A DNA stretch of 64,000 bases from Candidatus Nomurabacteria bacterium (GCA_023898465.1 CP060223.1:768001-832000), one strand, 5' to 3'; counted from the first letter of the stretch, positions 3,096 to 59,908 are shown. Translations and numbers: made by a program. Notes: generated by a model not told the origin, from the letters alone.

Positions 3096-3217
3096 ACGGT
3101 ATATATACTACACTAAAAGGCGATTTTTTATTTCAAAGCCTATTTGACACTCCAAAAAATGGGCAGTAGAGTGGACAAGCGATTCCACCACATCTAGCCG
3201 AAAGTAAGGAGGGCAAG

Positions 3218-3523
3218 ATGTCCTTGGTCGTTGTAACACATGATGGTAGCCTGCCATGCAACCGTGGAGGCACGGGTAGGCGTGTTGGCTACTTCTCGCC
3301 TGAATCGCGGATGTATTTCCCTCTGACCGGGGGCAGTGTCTACATCCCGATTCCTCCGCCACCGCCCAAACCTCCAAACTACTTCGAACTTCCGAGAACC
3401 ACCTGGCGTGACCGCTGCATCGAGTGTAATGGTCACACGAGCTGGAAGAGGAAGAAACTCGAAGGCGGCGTGCGTGAGGTCAAGGTCTGCGAAGAGTGTG
3501 GCAAGCTGATGCGTCCGTACTAG
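3218..3523 (+). CDS. small zinc-ribbon protein (CxxC-x17-CxxC), hypothetical
   Basis: GC-rich ORF preceded by an AAGGAGG Shine-Dalgarno; RCIECNGH...VCEECGK four-Cys ribbon; proline run PIPPPPPKPP. Confidence 0.4.
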   Translation: MSLVVVTHDGSLPCNRGGTGRRVGYFSPESRMYFPLTGGSVYIPIPPPPPKPPNYFELPRTTWRDRCIECNGHTSWKRKKLEGGVREVKVCEECGKLMRPY

Positions 3524-3535
3524 AGCGTCCGTGGA

Positions 3536-3567
3536 CCGCTTCTCAATCTGAGAGGCGGTCTTTTTTC
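3536..3567 (+). terminator. intrinsic terminator / REP-like hairpin (CCGCTTCTC..GAGAGGCGG + T-run)
   Basis: Stem CCGCUUCUC/GAGAGGCGG followed by UCUUUUUU, then TTGACA; near-identical to the unit at 4047-4087. Confidence 0.5.
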
Positions 3568-3643
3568 TTGACAGTGCAGCGTATTGTCGTTAAGGTGCTG
3601 GGTCGGAAACTGGACATTCACAAACGCAATGAAGGAGGGACTG

Positions 3644-4035
3644 TGTCATACGATCCAAACGCTTTTTTCCCGCCCTACATGAATTCGACCAACGAGGGTA
3701 ACCAGCATAGCGCCGGCATGCACGTGGTCGGGCTGCAGTTCTTCTTGGACGGCCTGATCATCGGCGGCAAGATCAACGCGCCACTCATCCCGATCACCGG
3801 AATGACTGACGAGGCCACGGCGAACGCGGTGAAAGCGCTCCAGCGCGAGCTCGGCATGAGCGACGTTGATGGCAACTTCGGCCAGGGTACCAGGGAAGCC
3901 CTGCTCCGTGCCACCAGCTTCAACTTCAACACGATCCCTGGATCGATCCGTACCATCCAGGGAATCTGGATCGACCCGGACGGAAATCTCAAGCCTTGGC
4001 CCCTGGCGTTCACCGACGATCTGCCCGGCGACTAG
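3644..4035 (+). CDS. peptidoglycan-binding (PG_binding_1) domain protein
   Basis: GAAGGAGGG then GTG at 3644 (ATG at 3679 is an alternative start). Motif TGMTDEATANAVKALQRELGMSDVDGNFGQGTREAL is typical of PG_binding_1. Confidence 0.5.
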
Positions 4036-4046
4036 GACCCACCCGC

Positions 4047-4084
4047 GCCGCCTCTTCTTTCACGGAGAGGCGGTCTTTTCTTTT
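4047..4084 (+). terminator. intrinsic terminator / REP-like hairpin, second copy
   Basis: CCGCCTCTTC...GAGAGGCGG followed by TCTTTTCTTTT; 21/24 nt identical to 3550-3573. Confidence 0.5.
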
Positions 4085-4110
4085 GACCTCGCAGCATCTT
4101 GGATGTATGT
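4082..4110 (+). promoter_or_regulatory. sigma70-like promoter upstream of the transposase (TTGACC-17-TATGTT)
   Basis: -35 TTGACC at 4082-4087, 17-nt spacer, -10 TATGTT at 4105-4110; the transposase start is about 37 nt downstream. Confidence 0.4.
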
Positions 4111-4146
4111 TACACACAGACAAAGGTGGCGCCTTAGGGTTACCTT

Positions 4147-4722
4147 TTGACCCAGCGCAGAATTTATCAAAACACATACCCATACCATCTCACCACGGTA
4201 ACGAAAAACCGACGGTGGGCATTTCGAGATGTGAAACTAGCATGGAAATTGCACCAGGCAATTCTTGGCGCGTGTTTTGTTAAAGGTTACACCGCGCTGG
4301 CATTTTGCATATTACCGGACCATATACATTTGTTGGTTTGGAAGCATATCCCAGCGCGGGTAGGAGAACCCACGCTGGGCCTGGATGAAATACAAACACA
4401 ATTATTATTCCCCGAAGCCCAGCGCGCGTTCTCTAACGTGCGCGATAACAACCATGATGACATTTCATACTTAATGAAATCAATAAAAGGCACCTTTGCT
4501 CGATCAATTTCCTCCGGCCCCATCTGGCAACCCAGCTTCAATTCCCGCATCGTCGACTCTGATCAACGCCTCTACAACACACTGCAGTATATTCAATATA
4601 ATTATCGTAAACATAAACTACCCGCACACTATGGCCAAGCACCATATACCTTTCTTAATATCCCAAAAAGCATTTACAACATTGACCAAAACCGGTTTTT
4701 CTCGTACGATGGCAGAGATTGA
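4147..4722 (+). CDS. IS200-like / REP-associated tyrosine transposase (HuH Y1 transposase, RAYT-like)
   Basis: HuH motif LPDHIHLLV; downstream Tyr-containing helix LQYIQYNYRKHKL resembles the YIxxNPxK helix of TnpA_IS200/RAYT; 191 aa, a typical size. Confidence 0.65.
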   Translation: MTQRRIYQNTYPYHLTTVTKNRRWAFRDVKLAWKLHQAILGACFVKGYTALAFCILPDHIHLLVWKHIPARVGEPTLGLDEIQTQLLFPEAQRAFSNVRDNNHDDISYLMKSIKGTFARSISSGPIWQPSFNSRIVDSDQRLYNTLQYIQYNYRKHKLPAHYGQAPYTFLNIPKSIYNIDQNRFFSYDGRD

Positions 4723-8223: not shown

Positions 8224-8351
8224 TAGTACTTACCAACACTGGCGTTGCAGGTCCGGAGGGTCGTCCGGACAGAGAAGGACATCGGCCGCGCTTGGCGAGA
8301 AGGAAGCGAGCTTCAATGCGAGTCTCACTCAAGCAACGACCGACGTCCATG

Positions 8352-8423
8352 TGCCGTGGGAGGGATTCGAACCCCCAACCTTCAGATTACGAGTCAGATG
8401 CTCTACCACTGAGCTACCACGGC
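8352..8423 (-). tRNA. tRNA-Thr (anticodon CGU)
   Basis: Hand-folded: acceptor GCCGTGG/CCACGGC, D-arm GCTCAGTGGTAGAGC, anticodon loop CUCGUAA, T-loop GGTTCGAATCC; one U-U mismatch in the anticodon stem. Confidence 0.7.
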
Positions 8424-8579
8424 AGCTGTGTTGCGGGTCCTCAGGGCCTGCATGCTCTTCCCAGCGTACTGGACACTTTGGGCTGCAACACAACTTTTTA
8501 AGGACAGGCCGGGAAAATCCCGGGGGTGTTTATCTATGCACCTCTCGGTGAACTGATGGTATTTCACCTGTCCAAGATG

Positions 8580-8650
8580 AGCGGGAGACGGGATTTGAAC
8601 CCGCGACCTTCCGCCAGAGGCGGCTGCTCTGCCAACTGAGCTACGCCCGC
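8580..8650 (-). tRNA. tRNA-like gene with degenerate anticodon arm (possible pseudogene, identity unresolved)
   Basis: Good acceptor, D-arm (GCTCAGTTGGCAGAGC) and T-arm (GCGGGTTCAAATCCCGT), but the region between them is about 2 nt short and folds as CCGCC-UCU-GGCGG rather than a 5-bp/7-nt anticodon arm. Confidence 0.4.
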
Positions 8651-8796
8651 AAAAAAGAACGGACTAAGAATGTAGCGTATCCCCAAAAAGCTGTCAACCC
8701 TGTACCAGGCTTGGTGCGAGGTCAACCCTATCGTTCGCGAACTACGGAATCAAGAAAAAGGGAGATGCCATCAATGATGAACATCTCCCGAAGATT

Positions 8797-8868
8797 TGGT
8801 ACCTCCTGGAATCGAACCAGGGTAACCCGATTTTCAGTCGAGCACTCTACCAACTGAGTTAAGGTACC
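8797..8868 (-). tRNA. tRNA-Phe (anticodon GAA)
   Basis: Acceptor GGTACCT/AGGTACC, D-arm ACTCAGTTGGTAGAGT, anticodon loop CUGAAAA, T-loop GGTTCGATTCC. Confidence 0.75.
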
Positions 8869-8956
8869 GCTAGAGCGTGGCGGAAAGGCGAAGGACTTTC
8901 ACCAACTCACTGATCAAGACCAGCGTGTCCTCGGGGACGCCTTTCCAGAACAGATG

Positions 8957-9028
8957 AGGCGGGTCAAGGATTTGAACCTCGGAATCGCGGATTTGAAGAC
9001 CGCTGCCTTACCACTTGGCTAACCCGCC
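8957..9028 (-). tRNA. tRNA with apparent UCA anticodon (Trp-like anticodon arm; would decode UGA/UGG)
   Basis: Acceptor GGCGGGT/ACCCGCC, anticodon arm GCGGU-CUUCAAA-UCCGC (compare canonical Trp CCGGU-CUCCAAA-ACCGG), T-arm CGAGGTTCAAATCCTTG. Genes in the window use TGA as a stop, so the anticodon assignment needs tRNAscan-SE. Confidence 0.5.
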
Positions 9029-9050
9029 TTTCAACCTATAAGTTAGAGAG

Positions 9051-9124
9051 GCGCCCTGGAAGGAATTGAACCTCCGACATCTGGGTCCATAGCCCAGCGC
9101 TCTTCCGACTGAGCTACAGGGCAC
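9051..9124 (-). tRNA. tRNA-His-like (G-1:C73 present) with an AUG rather than GUG anticodon triplet
   Basis: 8-bp acceptor including G-1 paired to C73 (a His identity element), D-arm GCTCAGTCGGAAGAGC, anticodon arm CUGGG-CUAUGGA-CCCAG, T-loop GGTTCAATTCC. A34 is unusual and may be a variant or sequence error. Confidence 0.5.
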
Positions 9125-9133
9125 AACAAACGG

Positions 9134-9206
9134 TAGCGCAAGCAGGATTCAAACCTACGTTTCCACACAGAGAATGTGGCGACCTAAACCACTAGTCGAT
9201 TGCGCC
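9134..9206 (-). tRNA. tRNA, Glu/Gln-like (anticodon loop UUCUCUG, CUC?)
   Basis: Acceptor GGCGCAA/TTGCGCT, Glu-type D-arm GACTAGTGGTTTAGGTC, anticodon stem CCACA/TGTGG, T-loop GGTTTGAATCC; position 37 is not a purine, so the identity is tentative. Confidence 0.45.
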
Positions 9207-9311
9207 GGCAAATAGATTGCGACAGACCCTCTTCCGAGAGAGTGACGGCTCATCCTGCTATGAAAGAGGCCATCACAAAATGGTAAGCAATGTACTACAC
9301 CTGATCTAATG

Positions 9312-9386
9312 CGGCGCTGACAGGATTTGAACCTGCGAAACACTCGGCTGACCGCCGAGCTGCCTTAACCACTAGACTACAGCGCC
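9312..9386 (-). tRNA. tRNA, Asp-like (anticodon GUC; position 33 reads G)
   Basis: Acceptor GGCGCTG/CAGCGCC, anticodon arm CUCGG-CGGUCAG-CCGAG, T-loop GGTTCAAATCC. Confidence 0.5.
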
Positions 9387-9470: not shown

Positions 9471-10118
9471 TCAATTCAGCGAGAAACGGAAGGGAATGAC
9501 TGTCCAGACGGCCACCGCCCTATCACGCTGCTTCGCCGGACTAAAGAGCCACTGGAGTGCCGCAGCACATGCTGACTGATTCATCGACTCGAGCACCTCA
9601 CTCTGCACCACACTCGCTGCATCAACCGCACCGGTCTCGGTAATATGCACGCGCACCATCACCAAACCTTCCGCACCAGCCTGACGAGCCAAGTCAGGAT
9701 AGACCGGAGCTACCCGATGAATGACCTGTGGCGCTGTATCATAGGCCACAAAAGTCTCGGGTATTCCACTGTCCTGTCCGCTCATCACAATTGGCGGAGC
9801 AAAGGGATCGTAGGTCGTAGGAGCCAGCGTTTCTTCCAGACTGGCCATCTCGCTGATCTCAGCCTCAGCCGGCAAGTCAGGTCGCTGCACTTCTTGCGGC
9901 GGAGGTGGAACCACGAAGTCCTCCATGAACTCCACCGCGGTCATCACGCGCTCATGCAACTGATAAGGATGCGGGACATAGGGCGGCGAAAACCTGGCGA
10001 GCAAGAACAAGAGGGCAGTTGCTACCAGAAAACTCCAGCCTATGTCACGCCAGTAGTGCTGCTTCAGTAGGTAATGCTCTGAGGCACGGAAGCTTTCCAA
10101 TCCGATCACAAAGCACAC
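9471..10118 (-). CDS. TonB-family protein (N-terminal TM, Pro-rich linker, TonB C-terminal domain)
   Basis: TM WSFLVATALLFLLARF; linker PPPPQEVQRPDLP; C-terminus VYPDLARQAGAEGLVMVRVHITETGAV...SEVLESMNQSACAAALQWLFSPA matches the TonB_C fold pattern. Confidence 0.6.
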   Translation of the reverse strand: MCFVIGLESFRASEHYLLKQHYWRDIGWSFLVATALLFLLARFSPPYVPHPYQLHERVMTAVEFMEDFVVPPPPQEVQRPDLPAEAEISEMASLEETLAPTTYDPFAPPIVMSGQDSGIPETFVAYDTAPQVIHRVAPVYPDLARQAGAEGLVMVRVHITETGAVDAASVVQSEVLESMNQSACAAALQWLFSPAKQRDRAVAVWTVIPFRFSLN

Positions 10119-38137: not shown

Positions 38138-38266
38138 ATCTGAGTAAAATACTAAGATATAAAAACTCGCCTGTCAACGTCTACTTTGACAAGCAGTGCC
38201 TGCAAAATCTATGCTACCCCCATACTCGTTCTTTCACACCCGTTCCCATGCAGGAAAGGAATACTC

Positions 38267-38911
38267 ATGGACGCTCTGATGACCAGCCTTGTGCAGGCAC
38301 CAATTCGCAAGAGTCGGCCGACCTGCGCTCGACGTCGATCTCACCGCTTCCAGCAACTACGTCATGGAACCCGACTTCGCCCTCTGGCAATCGCGCTCAA
38401 CCAACTCAACATCAGACCTTTCGTCAAGGCTGATGTGGAGAGATACAAGCGTGCACGTCGCGCTGAGTGCGAACCAACGCTTCGTCGAGATGCGCGCTTC
38501 AGGCGCTTCTTCCACATCAGCGCTAAGGTCGCCGCGATATTCGTGATAGTGTCTGCCATCTACTTGGCGGTACCTGGTCCGGCTCAATTCGCGGCGACTT
38601 GCTCGCTACTTGTTTCGTCGGTCTACCTGACTGCAAACCTCATCCTCGGCTGTCGCCTGCAGTTGCGAACTTACGTCCGCTGGCAGACCTGGAAAATCGA
38701 AACAGAGTGGTGCGCTTACCCAGGCGTACTTCCCGATCCTGTACAGCTACAGATCGCCAGGATCAAGGAGGTAGCACCGGGCGCTCGCTTCGAGGTCGAA
38801 GACCTCCGTTACAATACCGGACGGGTCTATGACCCACTCCTGTACGCGTGTCTGGATGAGGAACGCTTCTGCGTAGCAACTTGGCTAGGCAAGGAATGCC
38901 GAATCGCCTAA
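38267..38911 (+). CDS. hypothetical membrane protein (basic N-terminus, two TM helices, about 75-aa C-terminal domain), GC-rich island
   Basis: AGGAAAGG Shine-Dalgarno then ATG at 38267; about 59% GC versus about 48% backbone; no motif recognised. Confidence 0.45.
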   Translation: MDALMTSLVQAPIRKSRPTCARRRSHRFQQLRHGTRLRPLAIALNQLNIRPFVKADVERYKRARRAECEPTLRRDARFRRFFHISAKVAAIFVIVSAIYLAVPGPAQFAATCSLLVSSVYLTANLILGCRLQLRTYVRWQTWKIETEWCAYPGVLPDPVQLQIARIKEVAPGARFEVEDLRYNTGRVYDPLLYACLDEERFCVATWLGKECRIA

Positions 38912-39237
38912 GGCCACATTCGAGACCAGCTTCTCTCTTGAAGCTGGTCTTTCCTTATATGCTTGACAGTTTTTCTAGACCGTGCTAACTTATCCCGTTG
39001 TTCGTGACCGCATATGTAGTCCCGGACAACGTCAACCACTGGAAATCGGCGCATCATCGCGCCACGTCACAACGAATGGGAGGTATTCCCTCGATGCTGA
39101 CAAAACTCAAGCGTTGCCCGCGTAGGTATGCGAGCCTGGGTCGCCGGTCCCAGTAGCCCTCTCTCGCACGAGAGGAATCCAACTCGTCCTGCGCCGGGGC
39201 CTTCCACCGGCAATTACACCGTCGAAACGGACGAACC

Positions 39238-39276
39238 CCGGAGCCCGAAGACATCTGTCTGAGGGCTCCTTTTTCC
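39238..39276 (+). terminator. intrinsic terminator (GGAGCCC...GGGCTCC + TTTTT)
   Basis: Perfect 7-bp GC stem then T5, immediately upstream of a consensus promoter. Confidence 0.5.
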
Positions 39277-39277
39277 A

Positions 39278-39306
39278 TTGACACAAAGCGTATCGTCTGC
39301 TATATT
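39278..39306 (+). promoter_or_regulatory. near-consensus sigma70 promoter (TTGACA-17-TATATT) driving the three-paralogue operon
   Basis: TTGACA at 39278-39283, 17-nt spacer, TATATT at 39301-39306; first ORF starts at 39345 after GGAGGATGA. Confidence 0.55.
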
Positions 39307-39344
39307 CCCCGGTCTCACGCACCTGCACAATCAACGGAGGATGA

Positions 39345-39614
39345 ATGCGGAACGAAGACGCTGATGCAATGCACTTCCACTGGGGGATCACGAACTGCGT
39401 TGTCATCGACGTAGAAGAAAGGCCTAGAGCAAGTGCGGTACGCACTTTTGCTCAGGACAACCAAGCTACTTGTTCAGAGGGAAATGAAGTCCTGGTGCGA
39501 TGCACCTGCACTGAAATTCGACCTCAGCTACTTAGTGTGAGGAGGCTCCAGTCCTTTCTCACCGAACATCGTTCTGGTCATCCAATAAACTCGCCCAAAG
39601 AGGAGGGGGAATGA
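39345..39614 (+). CDS. small acidic Cys/His-motif protein, paralogue 1 of a tandem triplet (unknown family)
   Basis: 89 aa; shares NCVVI...VLVxCxC...FLxxHxxGHP with the two following ORFs; 4-nt overlap with the next ORF. Confidence 0.5.
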   Translation: MRNEDADAMHFHWGITNCVVIDVEERPRASAVRTFAQDNQATCSEGNEVLVRCTCTEIRPQLLSVRRLQSFLTEHRSGHPINSPKEEGE

Positions 39615-39889
39615 AAGCAGTCAACGCTGGTGAACACGGCAACGAGCACGTCCGGGTCTGCGTTGTCATCGAAGGAGATGAGAACCGAGATATTCTGGAA
39701 ATCTACGCTTTCGCTCGCGAGGTTCAGGCCATCGAGCCTGACGAGCCGCAAGACGAGGCTAGCGATGGAGAACGCGTCTTGATTTGTTGCGAATGTCCGG
39801 GCGGAGACAGACCTCGCTTCGCTGACCATGACCAACTGATCGCCTTTCTCCGCGATCACAACTCAGGCCACCACGCTTCGGTGGAATAG
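39611..39889 (+). CDS. small acidic Cys/His-motif protein, paralogue 2
   Basis: 92 aa; VCVVIEGDE...AFAREV...VLICCECPG...FLRDHNSGHH. Confidence 0.5.
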   Translation: MKAVNAGEHGNEHVRVCVVIEGDENRDILEIYAFAREVQAIEPDEPQDEASDGERVLICCECPGGDRPRFADHDQLIAFLRDHNSGHHASVE

Positions 39890-39904
39890 CCGGAAGGAGA
39901 CTAC

Positions 39905-40177
39905 ATGCATACCGTAGCCGCTACGGCACCATCGAAGCAAGTCAAGAACTGCGTCGTAATCCAGCTAGGAGAGCATCCCTCTCTAGAGACGCTCCTTGCC
40001 TTCGCGGCAGAGCATGCGGCCGTCAGAGTTGACGAGCAACCCGACGAACTCAACGACGGTGATCAGGTCCTGGTCACCTGCAATTGTCGGGACGGCTCAG
40101 GGCAGCAAATGCTCCTCACCGTGCCGGAGATTGAGCAGTTTCTCGAAAGTCACGCCTTGGGGCATCCCTCGGGGTAA
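39905..40177 (+). CDS. small acidic Cys/His-motif protein, paralogue 3
   Basis: 90 aa; NCVVIQLGE...AFAAEH...VLVTCNCRDG...FLESHALGHP. Confidence 0.5.
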   Translation: MHTVAATAPSKQVKNCVVIQLGEHPSLETLLAFAAEHAAVRVDEQPDELNDGDQVLVTCNCRDGSGQQMLLTVPEIEQFLESHALGHPSG

Positions 40178-40273
40178 ACTATGCACCTTCACCTAGAACC
40201 AGCTGACTCCGGTCTCCTGGTTCTTTCTTTTTCTGTCACTCTGGACTTGTTCCGAAGTCTCCTAAACTCAAAA

Positions 40274-41225: not shown

Positions 41226-41468
41226 ATGACGCTCGCAGCTACTGAACTTAGGCCTGGGATGACGGTGCGGAATCTGCGGAGCGGTCTCACCGCTACGGTC
41301 ACCGAACCGCTGAGGGTCACGGGCGATCCGCTGCACGTACACGTCAGGAGGACGATGGAGGGAGGCGAGAGCAACGGTAAGACCAAGTTGACCACCTGGA
41401 GTCTCGACAACGTCGAGATCGTGCCGGTGGCTCAGGAGCCTGTCGACAACGATCGGCAGGTCGGCTAG
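41226..41468 (+). CDS. small GC-rich hypothetical protein with its own strong RBS and terminator
   Basis: GGAGGAGGAG Shine-Dalgarno 5 nt before ATG; 80 aa; about 62% GC. Confidence 0.4.
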   Translation: MTLAATELRPGMTVRNLRSGLTATVTEPLRVTGDPLHVHVRRTMEGGESNGKTKLTTWSLDNVEIVPVAQEPVDNDRQVG

Positions 41469-49593: not shown

Positions 49594-49803
49594 TCAGCGA
49601 CGCGAGATGCGCACGTCGACCTGCTCGATGAGCACACCAATGCAGAAGAGAGCAAACAAGCCGACACAAAGCACGAGAAGGGCGTCGCATCCAGGCTCAG
49701 GTCCACCCATCTCCACCGAGGAGACGTAGACCTGATGGGCCGAGTACACGACGTACCCAAGACCCAGGAGAAGAAAGGTGCGGTACAGAATCTTCTTGAT
49801 CAT
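49594..49803 (-). CDS. small two-helix membrane protein, GC-rich islet next to 16S
   Basis: 69 aa, about 58% GC, hydrophobic helices. Confidence 0.35.
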   Translation of the reverse strand: MIKKILYRTFLLLGLGYVVYSAHQVYVSSVEMGGPEPGCDALLVLCVGLFALFCIGVLIEQVDVRISRR

Positions 49804-49812
49804 CTCACCTCC

Positions 49813-50211
49813 CTAAGGTGTAGCGGTTCGACGTCGTTGTAGCCACAGGATGGGCTGCATCCACAGCCAGCCGAAGAGGAACCAGCCAACAGCCAACCAG
49901 AAGATGAAGACAGCTGGAGGCCAGAAGTATGGAGCGAATGCGTACGTTAGCATCACGTCATTTGCTGCAGATGGGAATGCTTCCTCACCTACAGCATAGC
50001 GCTCAGCCGCCTCGTCTCCGTAGCGGTCGCGAACCTTGTCCATGACCTCAGCGGAAAACTGCGACGCAGTGAGGCTCGCTGCCTCCTGCACACACTCATG
50101 ATGCACGCGGTACGCATACATCGCGGACGGGATCGCCACCAGAATCGCGGCAATCACGTACCAAACACGCAAAGCAGTCCACTTTCGCATCTCGTCCTCC
50201 CATATTGCCAA
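49813..50211 (-). CDS. small membrane protein, GC-rich islet next to 16S
   Basis: 132 aa, two or three TM helices, Trp-rich; about 58% GC. Confidence 0.4.
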   Translation of the reverse strand: MAIWEDEMRKWTALRVWYVIAAILVAIPSAMYAYRVHHECVQEAASLTASQFSAEVMDKVRDRYGDEAAERYAVGEEAFPSAANDVMLTYAFAPYFWPPAVFIFWLAVGWFLFGWLWMQPILWLQRRRTATP

Positions 50212-52370: not shown

Positions 52371-52473
52371 GGAGGAAGGCAGATAGTCAAACTTGCTAAA
52401 AAGCCATAAAAAGCTTAGGTTTTAGATAGATCATTTGTAACTACCAATCATCATGAGAGAACGAGGGGGAGAC

Positions 52474-53211
52474 ATGTCCCGAGAAGTAGCCCGTACAGAG
52501 TCGAAAGAATACCCACCAGATCGCAATGGCAACATCATCCGAGAGGAGGTCAGCGAGCTGGCTGGCGGTGCCGTGCATCGTGAAGGCGGCATTGAAGAGG
52601 GTCCAGAAGCTGGACGCCGATGGAGCAAGTGGGATGAGAAGGAAGCGCGTCCGATCCCGGATGCACCAGCTGAGCTTCCGCTCTGGTATACCAGCGACCC
52701 GACGCAAATCAATGAGCTGCGGGCTCGGCGCTACGGCTTCATCACAGAAGCGTCGGAAAACGGTGGAGGTCCGTTAGCCGGCGACGCCTGGCTGCATGCC
52801 GAAGCTGACGTTGAAGTACTGCCAGTAGACCCTTTCTCGGCTGAGGCTCTCGAGCGAATGAGGGAGCTGAGCGCTGAGAAGCCTACACTCGTGATACAGG
52901 ATGCCGACTTCGCAACTACCTACCGTCGGCATGAGCATGAGGGTCAAATCCGAATCGAGATCACTCGAGTTCATGACAACGGCACCAAGTTCACACGCGG
53001 CGAACACATAACTGGAGACCGCAAAGGTTCCGGCTGGATCACGCGTGAAGCCCCAGTCGACACACAGATTGTCGACGGCCTCGAACTTCAAACCGATGAC
53101 GGCAGTCGAATCAATAGCCTCCAGGTCAAGAAATCGACTTTCAACTTCGGTACAGGGTCGCAGAACCGTCTCTACGTGGAATTCGTTGGGCGTCGGGAAA
53201 GCGAAAGCTAG
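52474..53211 (+). CDS. hypothetical acidic protein, GC-rich islet on the other side of the 16S
   Basis: About 60% GC; GAGGGGGAG Shine-Dalgarno before the ATG at 52474 (ORF open from 52453); no motif recognised. Confidence 0.4.
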   Translation: MSREVARTESKEYPPDRNGNIIREEVSELAGGAVHREGGIEEGPEAGRRWSKWDEKEARPIPDAPAELPLWYTSDPTQINELRARRYGFITEASENGGGPLAGDAWLHAEADVEVLPVDPFSAEALERMRELSAEKPTLVIQDADFATTYRRHEHEGQIRIEITRVHDNGTKFTRGEHITGDRKGSGWITREAPVDTQIVDGLELQTDDGSRINSLQVKKSTFNFGTGSQNRLYVEFVGRRESES

Positions 53212-59136: not shown

Positions 59137-59511
59137 TTGATCACTCAAGTGCAAGAACAGATTGACTCCCTGAGTTCAGCTCTAGGGGTCGCGGATGAAG
59201 AGCAGCGTCAAAAGGTGGCGTCGATCGTACGCACCTGCAACGAATGGATGGACCTCATCGAGAGTGGAACCACCAAGGAGAGAGGAGATTCCATCGAGAT
59301 CAGTCTCCAGGGCCTAACCGAGGCCATCACTTGTCTCCGCGCCAGAATCCCGGAACTGGCAAAGAGGTCGAATCGCCGTCCCAGAGCGGTCCGGCTATCT
59401 CGCTTTCTGCGCCTCCGTACTACGAACGGCCAACTGATCGAAGCAATGTACAACGATGTGGCCTGTCTGATCAGACAAGCCAATCTGCCGAGTGCTTCTC
59501 TGGCCGCCTGA
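59137..59511 (+). CDS. small GC-rich hypothetical protein
   Basis: AAGGAG Shine-Dalgarno then TTG at 59137 (ORF open from TTG at 59110); about 57% GC; no motif. Confidence 0.35.
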   Translation: MITQVQEQIDSLSSALGVADEEQRQKVASIVRTCNEWMDLIESGTTKERGDSIEISLQGLTEAITCLRARIPELAKRSNRRPRAVRLSRFLRLRTTNGQLIEAMYNDVACLIRQANLPSASLAA

Positions 59512-59517
59512 AGCATA

Positions 59518-59551
59518 GCGGACATCAGCCATCCTGGTGTCCGCTTTTCTA
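59518..59551 (+). terminator. intrinsic terminator (GCGGACA...TGTCCGC + TTTTCT); a second hairpin at 59561-59591
   Basis: 7-bp stem, 13-nt loop, T-run; the second hairpin is AATGCCA...TGGCATT + TTTTT. Confidence 0.5.
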
Positions 59552-59908
59552 TCCGAAAGAAATGCCACCGCACGAGACGATGGCATTTTTGGGAAACGTA
59601 GACCCGTCCTTGTCTAGGCCCTGACCTGATCGATCAGCCGATGGTAGCTGAGCAACCTCCTGTGAAATCCGCGATCACCTCGCGAAGCTTCCCAGGTGAG
59701 ACCCCTCACAACCTTGTCGTTGCGATCCAGAATGGATCGCGTCCTCCCCGGCGTCATCCCTGACTTTGCCTTGGGCCTAGCGCTATTGGACTTGTTGGGC
59801 ATAGTCCCCAACCCCCATATGCTACCCATCAACCCTATTGTTGATGTTAGTATTAAAATAAACCAATCTTAGGAATTGGTAAAGTATTCACTTCCCACAG
59901 GAAAACGC

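Follow-up and report, generated by a model that had tools for sequence, protein, structure and literature searches.

What do three short, mutually similar open reading frames (ORFs), here called A, B, and C, encode at 39345-40177 on the + strand of a chromosome of Candidatus Nomurabacteria, a lineage of the Candidate Phyla Radiation (CPR, or Patescibacteria)? The window, that is, the whole 64-kb stretch of chromosomal DNA analysed here (CP060223.1:768001-832000), includes a complete 16S rRNA gene. The best explanation, to which we give a probability of about 0.4, is that A, B, and C are co-transcribed, protein-coding paralogues of an orphan family that would serve as accessory, metal-stapled binding modules. 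The genes, with their lengths in amino acids (aa) and isoelectric points (pI), and the signals that frame them are:

39345-39614, + strand: paralogue A, 89 aa, pI 5.5, without the acidic loop; Shine-Dalgarno GGAGG
39611-39889, + strand: paralogue B, 92 aa, pI 4.6; Shine-Dalgarno GAGGAGG
39905-40177, + strand: paralogue C, 90 aa, pI 4.6; Shine-Dalgarno GGAGA
39278-39306, + strand: promoter of the A-B-C operon, near-consensus sigma-70-type, TTGACA-17-TATATT with an upstream TG, 11/12 matches
40195-40234, + strand: terminator of the operon, a hairpin at 40195-40224 followed by TTCTTTTTCT; -16.7 kcal/mol, z = -4.4

On pairwise comparison A, B, and C are true tandem paralogues, as the initial annotation had proposed: BLASTP E-values are 3e-9, 2e-13, and 3e-13 at 34-35% identity, and a family hidden Markov model (HMM) applied to the six-frame translation of the window retrieves exactly three copies, with nothing else below E = 2. 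The same search reveals no degenerate fourth copy in the 430-nucleotide (nt) spacer upstream of A. The three proteins align with C-V-V-I, E, F-A, A, G, V-L, C-x-C, F-L, H, and G-H invariant, and these residues use different synonymous codons in A, B, and C, so that the conservation is at the protein level and does not stem from recent gene conversion. Invariance is enriched at Cys/His positions, 5 of 8 being invariant as compared to 11 of the 81 other positions (Fisher p = 0.004); Cys and His thus account for 5 of the 16 invariant non-start positions, though for 8 of the 89 positions overall. The description of the proteins as very acidic suits B and C (pI 4.6) and suits A (pI 5.5) less well.

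The conservation pattern also indicates that all three are real protein-coding genes, because a homologue is found outside the species (P0004), because copies in a second strain are under purifying selection, and because the invariant residues are kept. P0004, a 94-aa protein retrieved by a full HMMER search of 1.84e9 representative proteins (E = 8e-14, 35-44% identical), is encoded on a metagenomic contig (L008) of 604 nt and 55% GC, and its gene has a Shine-Dalgarno site of its own (GAGGAGGAGG), begins with GTG, and ends in a stop codon. The second strain, from run SRR17818317 (contigs L010 and L011), shows the same gene arrangement; its B and C copies (B' and C') are unchanged in length, and the tail of its A copy (A') is present along with the ATGA overlap that joins it to B'. 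B and B' share 67% aa and 76.7% DNA identity, with a synonymous divergence (dS) of 0.81 and a ratio of nonsynonymous to synonymous divergence (dN/dS) of 0.23; C and C' share 92% aa identity, with a dN/dS of 0.34 (Nei-Gojobori method for both). Contigs from eight samples are essentially identical to the window (six at 100%, one at 99.9% with a single indel), and usable divergence comes from the strain in SRR17818317 alone. At the end of the P0004 contig (566-604), 27 nt past the stop, there is a Shine-Dalgarno-like GGGGAGGAG, which hints at another gene, perhaps a further family member, directly after P0004.

An alignment of six sequences (A, B, C, B', C', and P0004) leaves the following invariant, in the numbering of C: C16-V-V-I19, E23, F33-A34, A39, C59, C61, F79-L80, H83, G86, and a final His. 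Of the signature proposed initially, C-V-V-I and C-x-C stand as they were; 'A-F-A' is reduced to F-A, A itself reading T-F-A; and 'G-H' holds in A, B, and C but not as a strict invariant. Because B' reads HNSGNH and P0004 reads HRLGQH at this point, G-H becomes G-[x]-H and the pattern H-x3-4-H: the final His lies four residues after H83 in A and C (H-x3-H) and five after it in B' and P0004 (H-x4-H), and B has a His at both positions. With that relaxation, B', C', and P0004 retain every residue that is invariant among the paralogues. Two familiar motifs were considered and set aside, namely the HxGH nucleotidyltransferase or HIGH motif, for which the spacing is wrong and which would lie at the wrong end of the protein, and a calcium loop of the EF-hand or DxDxDG type within the acidic insert, for which the spacing is unfit and the loop is lacking in A.

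Public annotation covers this locus in part. B is identical to USN53307.1 (locus tag H6760_04035) in a 1.08-Mb GenBank record in which H6760_04030 is the membrane-protein gene upstream of A and H6760_04045 is an 80-aa ORF at 41226. The tags and the accessions USN53307 and USN53309 leave room for only one further gene, the Mrr-like gene downstream of C; because these consecutive identifiers leave no other room, A and C seem to be absent from the GenBank annotation, with B the sole annotated member. Gene starts or extents differ as well, the membrane protein being 158 aa in GenBank (214 aa here) and the 80-aa ORF being 69 aa there.

Judged by their flanking signals, A, B, and C form a single three-gene transcription unit, because a promoter precedes A and a hairpin terminator follows C. 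The single promoter, already recognized in the initial annotation, lies 39 nt before the start of A, and the terminator stands between C and the convergent Mrr-like gene. Of the ATGA overlaps claimed, the one between the A stop and the B start is present; B and C do not overlap, being separated by a 15-nt spacer that contains the GGAGA of C. The genes nonetheless look co-expressed, as had been suggested, given a strong promoter, ATGA coupling of A and B, and a single terminator. With no hydrophobic segment in any of the three (maximum Kyte-Doolittle score over 19 residues at most 1.04), the proteins are predicted to be soluble.

The notion of a new small-protein family is upheld by database searches, and we regard A/B/C as previously unclassified on that footing. 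None of A, B, and C has a match at E <= 1 in Pfam, NCBIfam, PHROGs, or PADLOC, and a scan of PADLOC-DB and PHROGs that also included P0004 returned zero families at the same threshold; PDB sequence profiles gave chance matches only, with nothing significant. In the full HMMER search P0004 was the sole true relative outside the species, so that among 1.84e9 representatives the family is known from two organisms only. A word-indexed search of 5.8e9 proteins with three- and four-sequence profiles returned only the family's own sequences and P0004, at a recall for this family that is imperfect, as B', present in that collection, was overlooked. One further hit, P0005 (E = 5.5e-8), is a 3688-aa eukaryotic Ig-repeat protein in which 'VRVTCESRGGDPPS' is repeated eight times, and was rejected as spurious; such a false positive is a caution for short Cys-containing profiles. 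No family member was found in scans of IMG/VR and of JGI metagenomes, or by tblastn against GenBank phages and PLSDB plasmids, and a literature search on the sample and protein accessions found nothing.

The initial annotation had read the divergence of these proteins as diversifying selection. The paralogues themselves are uninformative on this point, their synonymous sites being saturated (proportion of differing synonymous sites, pS, 0.66-0.87; of nonsynonymous sites, pN, 0.43-0.48), and between the two strains dN/dS is 0.23 for B, 0.34 for C, and 0.36 for the upstream membrane protein, which does not support it. These genes, all part of the GC-rich islet described below, are under relaxed but clear purifying selection, at a dN/dS at least ten times that of the Mrr-like core neighbour (0.02). 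What remains of the claim is rapid divergence in comparison to that neighbour, with B as a hotspot. DNA identity between the strains is 76.7% in B as compared to 94-95% in C, both spacers, and the Mrr-like gene, the 15-nt B-C spacer being identical, and the dS of B (0.81) compares with 0.11-0.29 for its neighbours. The limits of the divergent region (39611-39889, against L011 39-317) coincide with gene B. Because B alone has diverged while its flanks are 94-95% identical, its allele is an old or an imported one; the possible origins are recombination with a more distantly related lineage and prolonged upkeep of divergent alleles, which a pair of strains cannot separate.

Structure prediction with AlphaFold2 (AF2) points to an alpha/beta fold. 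The prediction for A from three sequences was poor (mean predicted local distance difference test, pLDDT, 54.6), and that for C from four sequences reached pLDDT 77.7 with a predicted template modelling score (pTM) of 0.71. The two runs give the same succession of elements: beta1 (CVVI), alpha1 (F-A), the acidic loop, beta2 (VLVxC), a turn, beta3, and alpha2 (FLxxH...), with a short beta strand predicted ahead of beta1. The acidic loop, which is variable and not found in A, has low AF2 confidence. In both runs the C-x-C closes a strand and the His pair closes the final helix. A Foldseek search of the AF2 model against PDB and BFVD returned nothing at E <= 0.001.

From this arrangement and the ligand pattern we infer, in line with the metal-binding domain suggested initially, that the invariant Cys and His residues probably hold a metal ion. 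One structural ion, most probably Zn2+, would be chelated jointly by the C-x-C that closes beta2 and the His-x3-4-His that closes the C-terminal helix, in a geometry read from the DSSP string of the AF2 models. Much as in beta-beta-alpha zinc fingers, such a Cys2His2 site would fasten the C-terminal helix to the beta-hairpin, and the invariant Cys of beta1 might belong to the protein core, add a fifth ligand, or serve as a ligand between subunits. Across the family the two His are separated by 3 or 4 residues only, which is compatible with a metal site because such a site tolerates both.

The operon makes up the right half of an islet of 2 kb (approximately 38190-40235) with a GC content of 0.55-0.58, as compared to a window mean of 0.486. 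Its other features, with those at its left border, are:

38177-38149, - strand: Rrf2/suf promoter, divergent, its -35 box back to back with that of the membrane-protein gene
38186-38215, + strand: promoter-like site of the membrane-protein gene, TTGACA-18-TATGCT, 10/12, conserved in the second strain
38267-38911, + strand: membrane-protein gene, first of the islet, 214 aa, basic, pI 10.1
38922-38951, + strand: terminator of the membrane-protein gene, a hairpin followed by TTTCCTTATAT; -21.1 kcal/mol, z = -7.7
38963-38991, + strand: possible weak promoter, a perfect -35 TTGACA, 17-nt spacer, and poor -10 TAACTT, read by eye and unreported by the promoter scan
38995-39276, + strand: structured non-coding stretch of ~280 nt, 56% GC, with a terminal hairpin at 39240-39269 followed by TTTTT

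The 214-aa protein combines a hydrophobic region at approximately residues 80-128, where two membrane helices are predicted, with a C-terminal domain rich in Cys; this orphan has no match in Pfam, PHROGs, PADLOC, NCBIfam, or PDB, and its sole relative is the strain variant P0006, 86% identical. That it forms one unit with A-B-C is not supported, its gene having its own promoter and terminator and being set apart from A by ~430 nt without a credible ORF. The stem of that terminator is kept in the second strain, where U-G replaces a U-A pair through one A-to-G change in the 3' arm. Part of the intervening DNA is itself conserved: 38952-39024 is ~96% identical between strains as compared to ~90% for the adjacent coding region, the -35 box and the first 35 nt of the structured stretch being highly conserved. 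Folding of 38990-39285 gives z = -5.44 on the + strand and -2.27 on the - strand, or -3.16 for the structured stretch without its terminal hairpin, which with its T5 abuts the A-B-C operon promoter. There is no Rfam match at E <= 5, and from its predicted folding the stretch is a candidate unclassified small RNA or regulatory leader.

To the left, on the opposite strand, lies Rrf2-ferredoxin-SufC-SufB-SufD-Rieske-SufS-SufU, adjacent to the islet in both strains. Both -35 boxes at this border sit within a palindrome, TGTCAACGTCTACTTTGACA (38149-38215), possibly a shared operator for the Rrf2 regulator. To the right is the convergent Mrr-like gene, a conserved core gene of the Mrr_cat (PD-(D/E)xK) family, which was considered and rejected as a functional partner of A/B/C, being a core gene with dN/dS 0.02. 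A 50% identical Mrr-like homologue occurs in another Patescibacteria genome, where the surrounding 16.8-kb locus (L009) contains no A/B/C family member; gene order there differs, which makes this synteny uninformative on insertion of the islet. We found no flanking direct repeats or integrase marking a mobile element, and blastn of the whole islet against phages gave no match.

We therefore return to the proposal that A, B, and C serve as accessory binding modules stapled by a metal. The operon, the membrane-protein gene, and the structured stretch would share a GC-rich accessory islet between the suf operon and a core gene, an interpretation adopted because of the GC content, the higher dN/dS, the two-organism distribution, and the absence of the family from the L009 locus. 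We infer that the proteins act as binding modules, neither enzymes nor housekeeping factors, and they might do so by assembling into a hetero-oligomer or with partners that differ between the paralogues. Several observations weigh against this. The better fold prediction is that of C from four sequences, and its five models disagree, from pLDDT 77.7 down to 42.5. The site is not backed by any match to a metal-binding family, motif model, or fold, and C-x-C is an unusual spacing for a zinc knuckle. The proposed site does not account for the third invariant Cys, on strand 1, which in the predicted topology would sit on the opposite side of the sheet, at its edge, provided that beta1-alpha1-beta2 forms a standard parallel crossover. 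Nothing points to a binding partner, and the window holds other GC-rich patches, GC alone being weak evidence of recent transfer.

Among the alternatives, a role in conflict is possible though doubtful: A, B, and C would be an immunity, antitoxin, or anti-defence array on a horizontally acquired islet, each paralogue neutralizing a different partner, with an arms race keeping old, divergent B alleles. Small, acidic, tandem, diverged paralogues behind a near-consensus promoter on a GC-rich islet, of extremely narrow distribution, are what such an array might look like; the divergence of B in DNA identity and dS relative to its flanks and the elevated dN/dS of the islet point the same way, and a structural metal site would be compatible with it. 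Yet the operon contains no toxin, nuclease, or defence gene; the neighbouring PD-(D/E)xK gene is convergent and conserved, and its homologue in L009 has no family member around it; PADLOC and PHROGs give no match, and phages, plasmids, and IMG/VR no relative; and dN/dS is below 1. We consider it improbable that these are iron-sulfur (Fe-S) cluster proteins tied to SUF, in which C...CxC and His would ligate a [2Fe-2S] cluster and the proteins would act as carriers or acceptors in an organism with no SufA in its suf operon. This is suggested by the islet directly adjoining the suf operon in both strains, by the back-to-back promoters of the islet's first gene and Rrf2/suf, by a suf operon in which we saw no Fe-S_biosyn (SufA/IscA) gene, and by a ligand set of three Cys and one or two His that resembles 3Cys-1His clusters. 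Against it stand a profile comparison with IscA at a probability of 0.2% (with an IscA sequence that may be inexact), no Pfam match to Fe-S_biosyn, zf-CDGSH, or Rieske, a predicted alpha/beta fold unlike that of the beta-rich A-type carriers, and evolutionary rates, a hypervariable B, and a two-organism distribution unlike those of a housekeeping carrier; moreover, A-B-C is transcribed separately from suf, from the other strand, and differs from it in GC content.

CxC motifs are capable of redox activity, and with the C-x-C invariant here the proteins might cycle between dithiol and disulfide, the histidines tuning the pKa. This is very unlikely, as no thioredoxin-like or other redox family is matched, two invariant histidines at a helix end suit metal chelation better, and these are acidic cytoplasmic proteins whose operon encodes no partner reductase. 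That the ORFs are spurious, or the decayed remains of a once longer multi-domain gene, might be argued from the GenBank annotation lacking A and C and from a family that is almost unique, but is effectively excluded: each ORF has a start, a stop, and a strong Shine-Dalgarno site of its own; lengths and frames are kept in the second strain at dN/dS 0.23-0.34; the homologue elsewhere is a stand-alone 94-aa protein; and the invariant residues are spelled with different synonymous codons. The concern in the initial annotation that such ORFs might have neither homologues nor a fold is answered by P0004, the strain variants, and the moderately confident AF2 model at pLDDT 77.7.

If the Cys/His site is real, A/B/C would be small metal-stapled proteins of a new sequence family, perhaps with a new fold, from a radiation whose many orphan genes are largely unexplored. 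A more ambitious proposal, which we hold to be quite improbable, is that this is the founding member of a new metal- or Fe-S-binding family that either substitutes for A-type carriers in a minimal CPR SUF system or forms a hypervariable set of metal-stapled binders in conflict between episymbiont and host or phage, with the structured RNA and the membrane protein in the same module. Adjacency to a SUF system without SufA and a hypervariable middle gene thus yield two concrete hypotheses. More soberly, this is one orphan operon among many that are lineage-restricted, and its description mainly corrects an annotation that misses two of three genes.

Some observations were made elsewhere in the window. 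At 8351-9386, on the - strand, lies an array of seven tRNA genes, one of which (8956-9028, 73 nt, anticodon UCA) is labelled SeC by ARAGORN and has a normal short cloverleaf and apparently U73; another (9050-9123, anticodon AUG) is labelled His. TGA ends 10 of the 36 long ORFs in the window, and the genetic code here is therefore the standard one, with the UCA tRNA a possible opal suppressor. The 80-aa ORF mentioned above (41226-41468, + strand) is a GC-rich orphan gene (GC 0.62, and 0.78 at third codon positions) with the Shine-Dalgarno GGAGGAGGAG, set among - strand genes and without a family match; the second strain also has the start of this gene. Further GC-rich patches lie at 9471-10118 (- strand), 3200-4200, 49600-50200, 52400-53200, and 59200-59800; one codes for a TonB_C-domain protein (E = 2.5e-17, unusual for CPR), another for a PG_binding_1 protein, and others hold orphan or accessory genes. 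Together these patches suggest a mosaic of acquired genes.

Several known systems can be compared to the A/B/C family. Anti-restriction and anti-defence proteins and immunity arrays (Ocr, ArdA, Acr operons, polymorphic-toxin immunity) are likewise small, acidic, and strongly expressed, and may likewise occur as tandem diverged copies on an accessory islet with one hypervariable member; A/B/C differ in showing no homology to them, in not being found on phages or plasmids, in having no cognate toxin or defence gene nearby, and in their invariant Cys and His, which are not typical of DNA mimics. HMA metallochaperones (CopZ/Atx1, PF00403), taken here as the known metallochaperone that the initial annotation had raised as an alternative, are also small alpha/beta proteins with conserved Cys, but the family lacks M-x-C-x-x-C in its beta1-alpha1 loop and matches them neither by HMM nor in fold (beta-alpha-beta-beta-alpha-beta). 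CDGSH/mitoNEET proteins (PF09360) share a motif beginning with CxC and a Cys3His-type inventory, and C reads C-N-C-R-D-G-S-G; the signature C-x-C-x2-(S/T)-x3-P-x-C-D-G-(S/A/T)-H is nevertheless absent from the family, whose third Cys lies 42 residues upstream and whose His lies >20 residues downstream, and there is no Pfam match.

The A-type Fe-S carriers (IscA/SufA/ErpA, PF01521) resemble A/B/C in being small and suf-adjacent and in having three invariant Cys as C...C-x-C, and their pattern C-x(n)-C-x-C is present in all six sequences (C16, C59, and C61). The family C-x-C is, however, internal instead of C-terminal, the predicted fold is alpha/beta instead of beta-rich, and the family is fast-evolving and almost species-restricted; hhalign of the family profile against Escherichia coli IscA gave a probability of 0.18% over 14 columns. 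Cys2His2 zinc fingers (zf-C2H2, PF00096; Ros/MucR, PF05443) have the same ligand order of Cys, Cys, His, and His, and in the AF2 models the Cys pair at a beta-hairpin and the His pair 3-4 apart at the C-terminal end of a helix are likewise zinc-finger-like; as in Ros/MucR, a larger globular domain would surround the putative site. The Pfam scan of A, B, and C gave no match to PF00096 or PF05443 at E <= 1. Zinc fingers are basic and have C-x2-4-C, whereas this family is acidic, has C-x-C, and carries an extra invariant Cys; the distance from the second Cys to the first His is ~21-22 residues as compared to 12 in classical fingers and 9 in Ros, so that of the spacings only that between the two His fits zf-C2H2, which has H-x3-5-H. 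The resemblance to zinc fingers is therefore best taken as a guide to how the site may work, not as a sign of membership.

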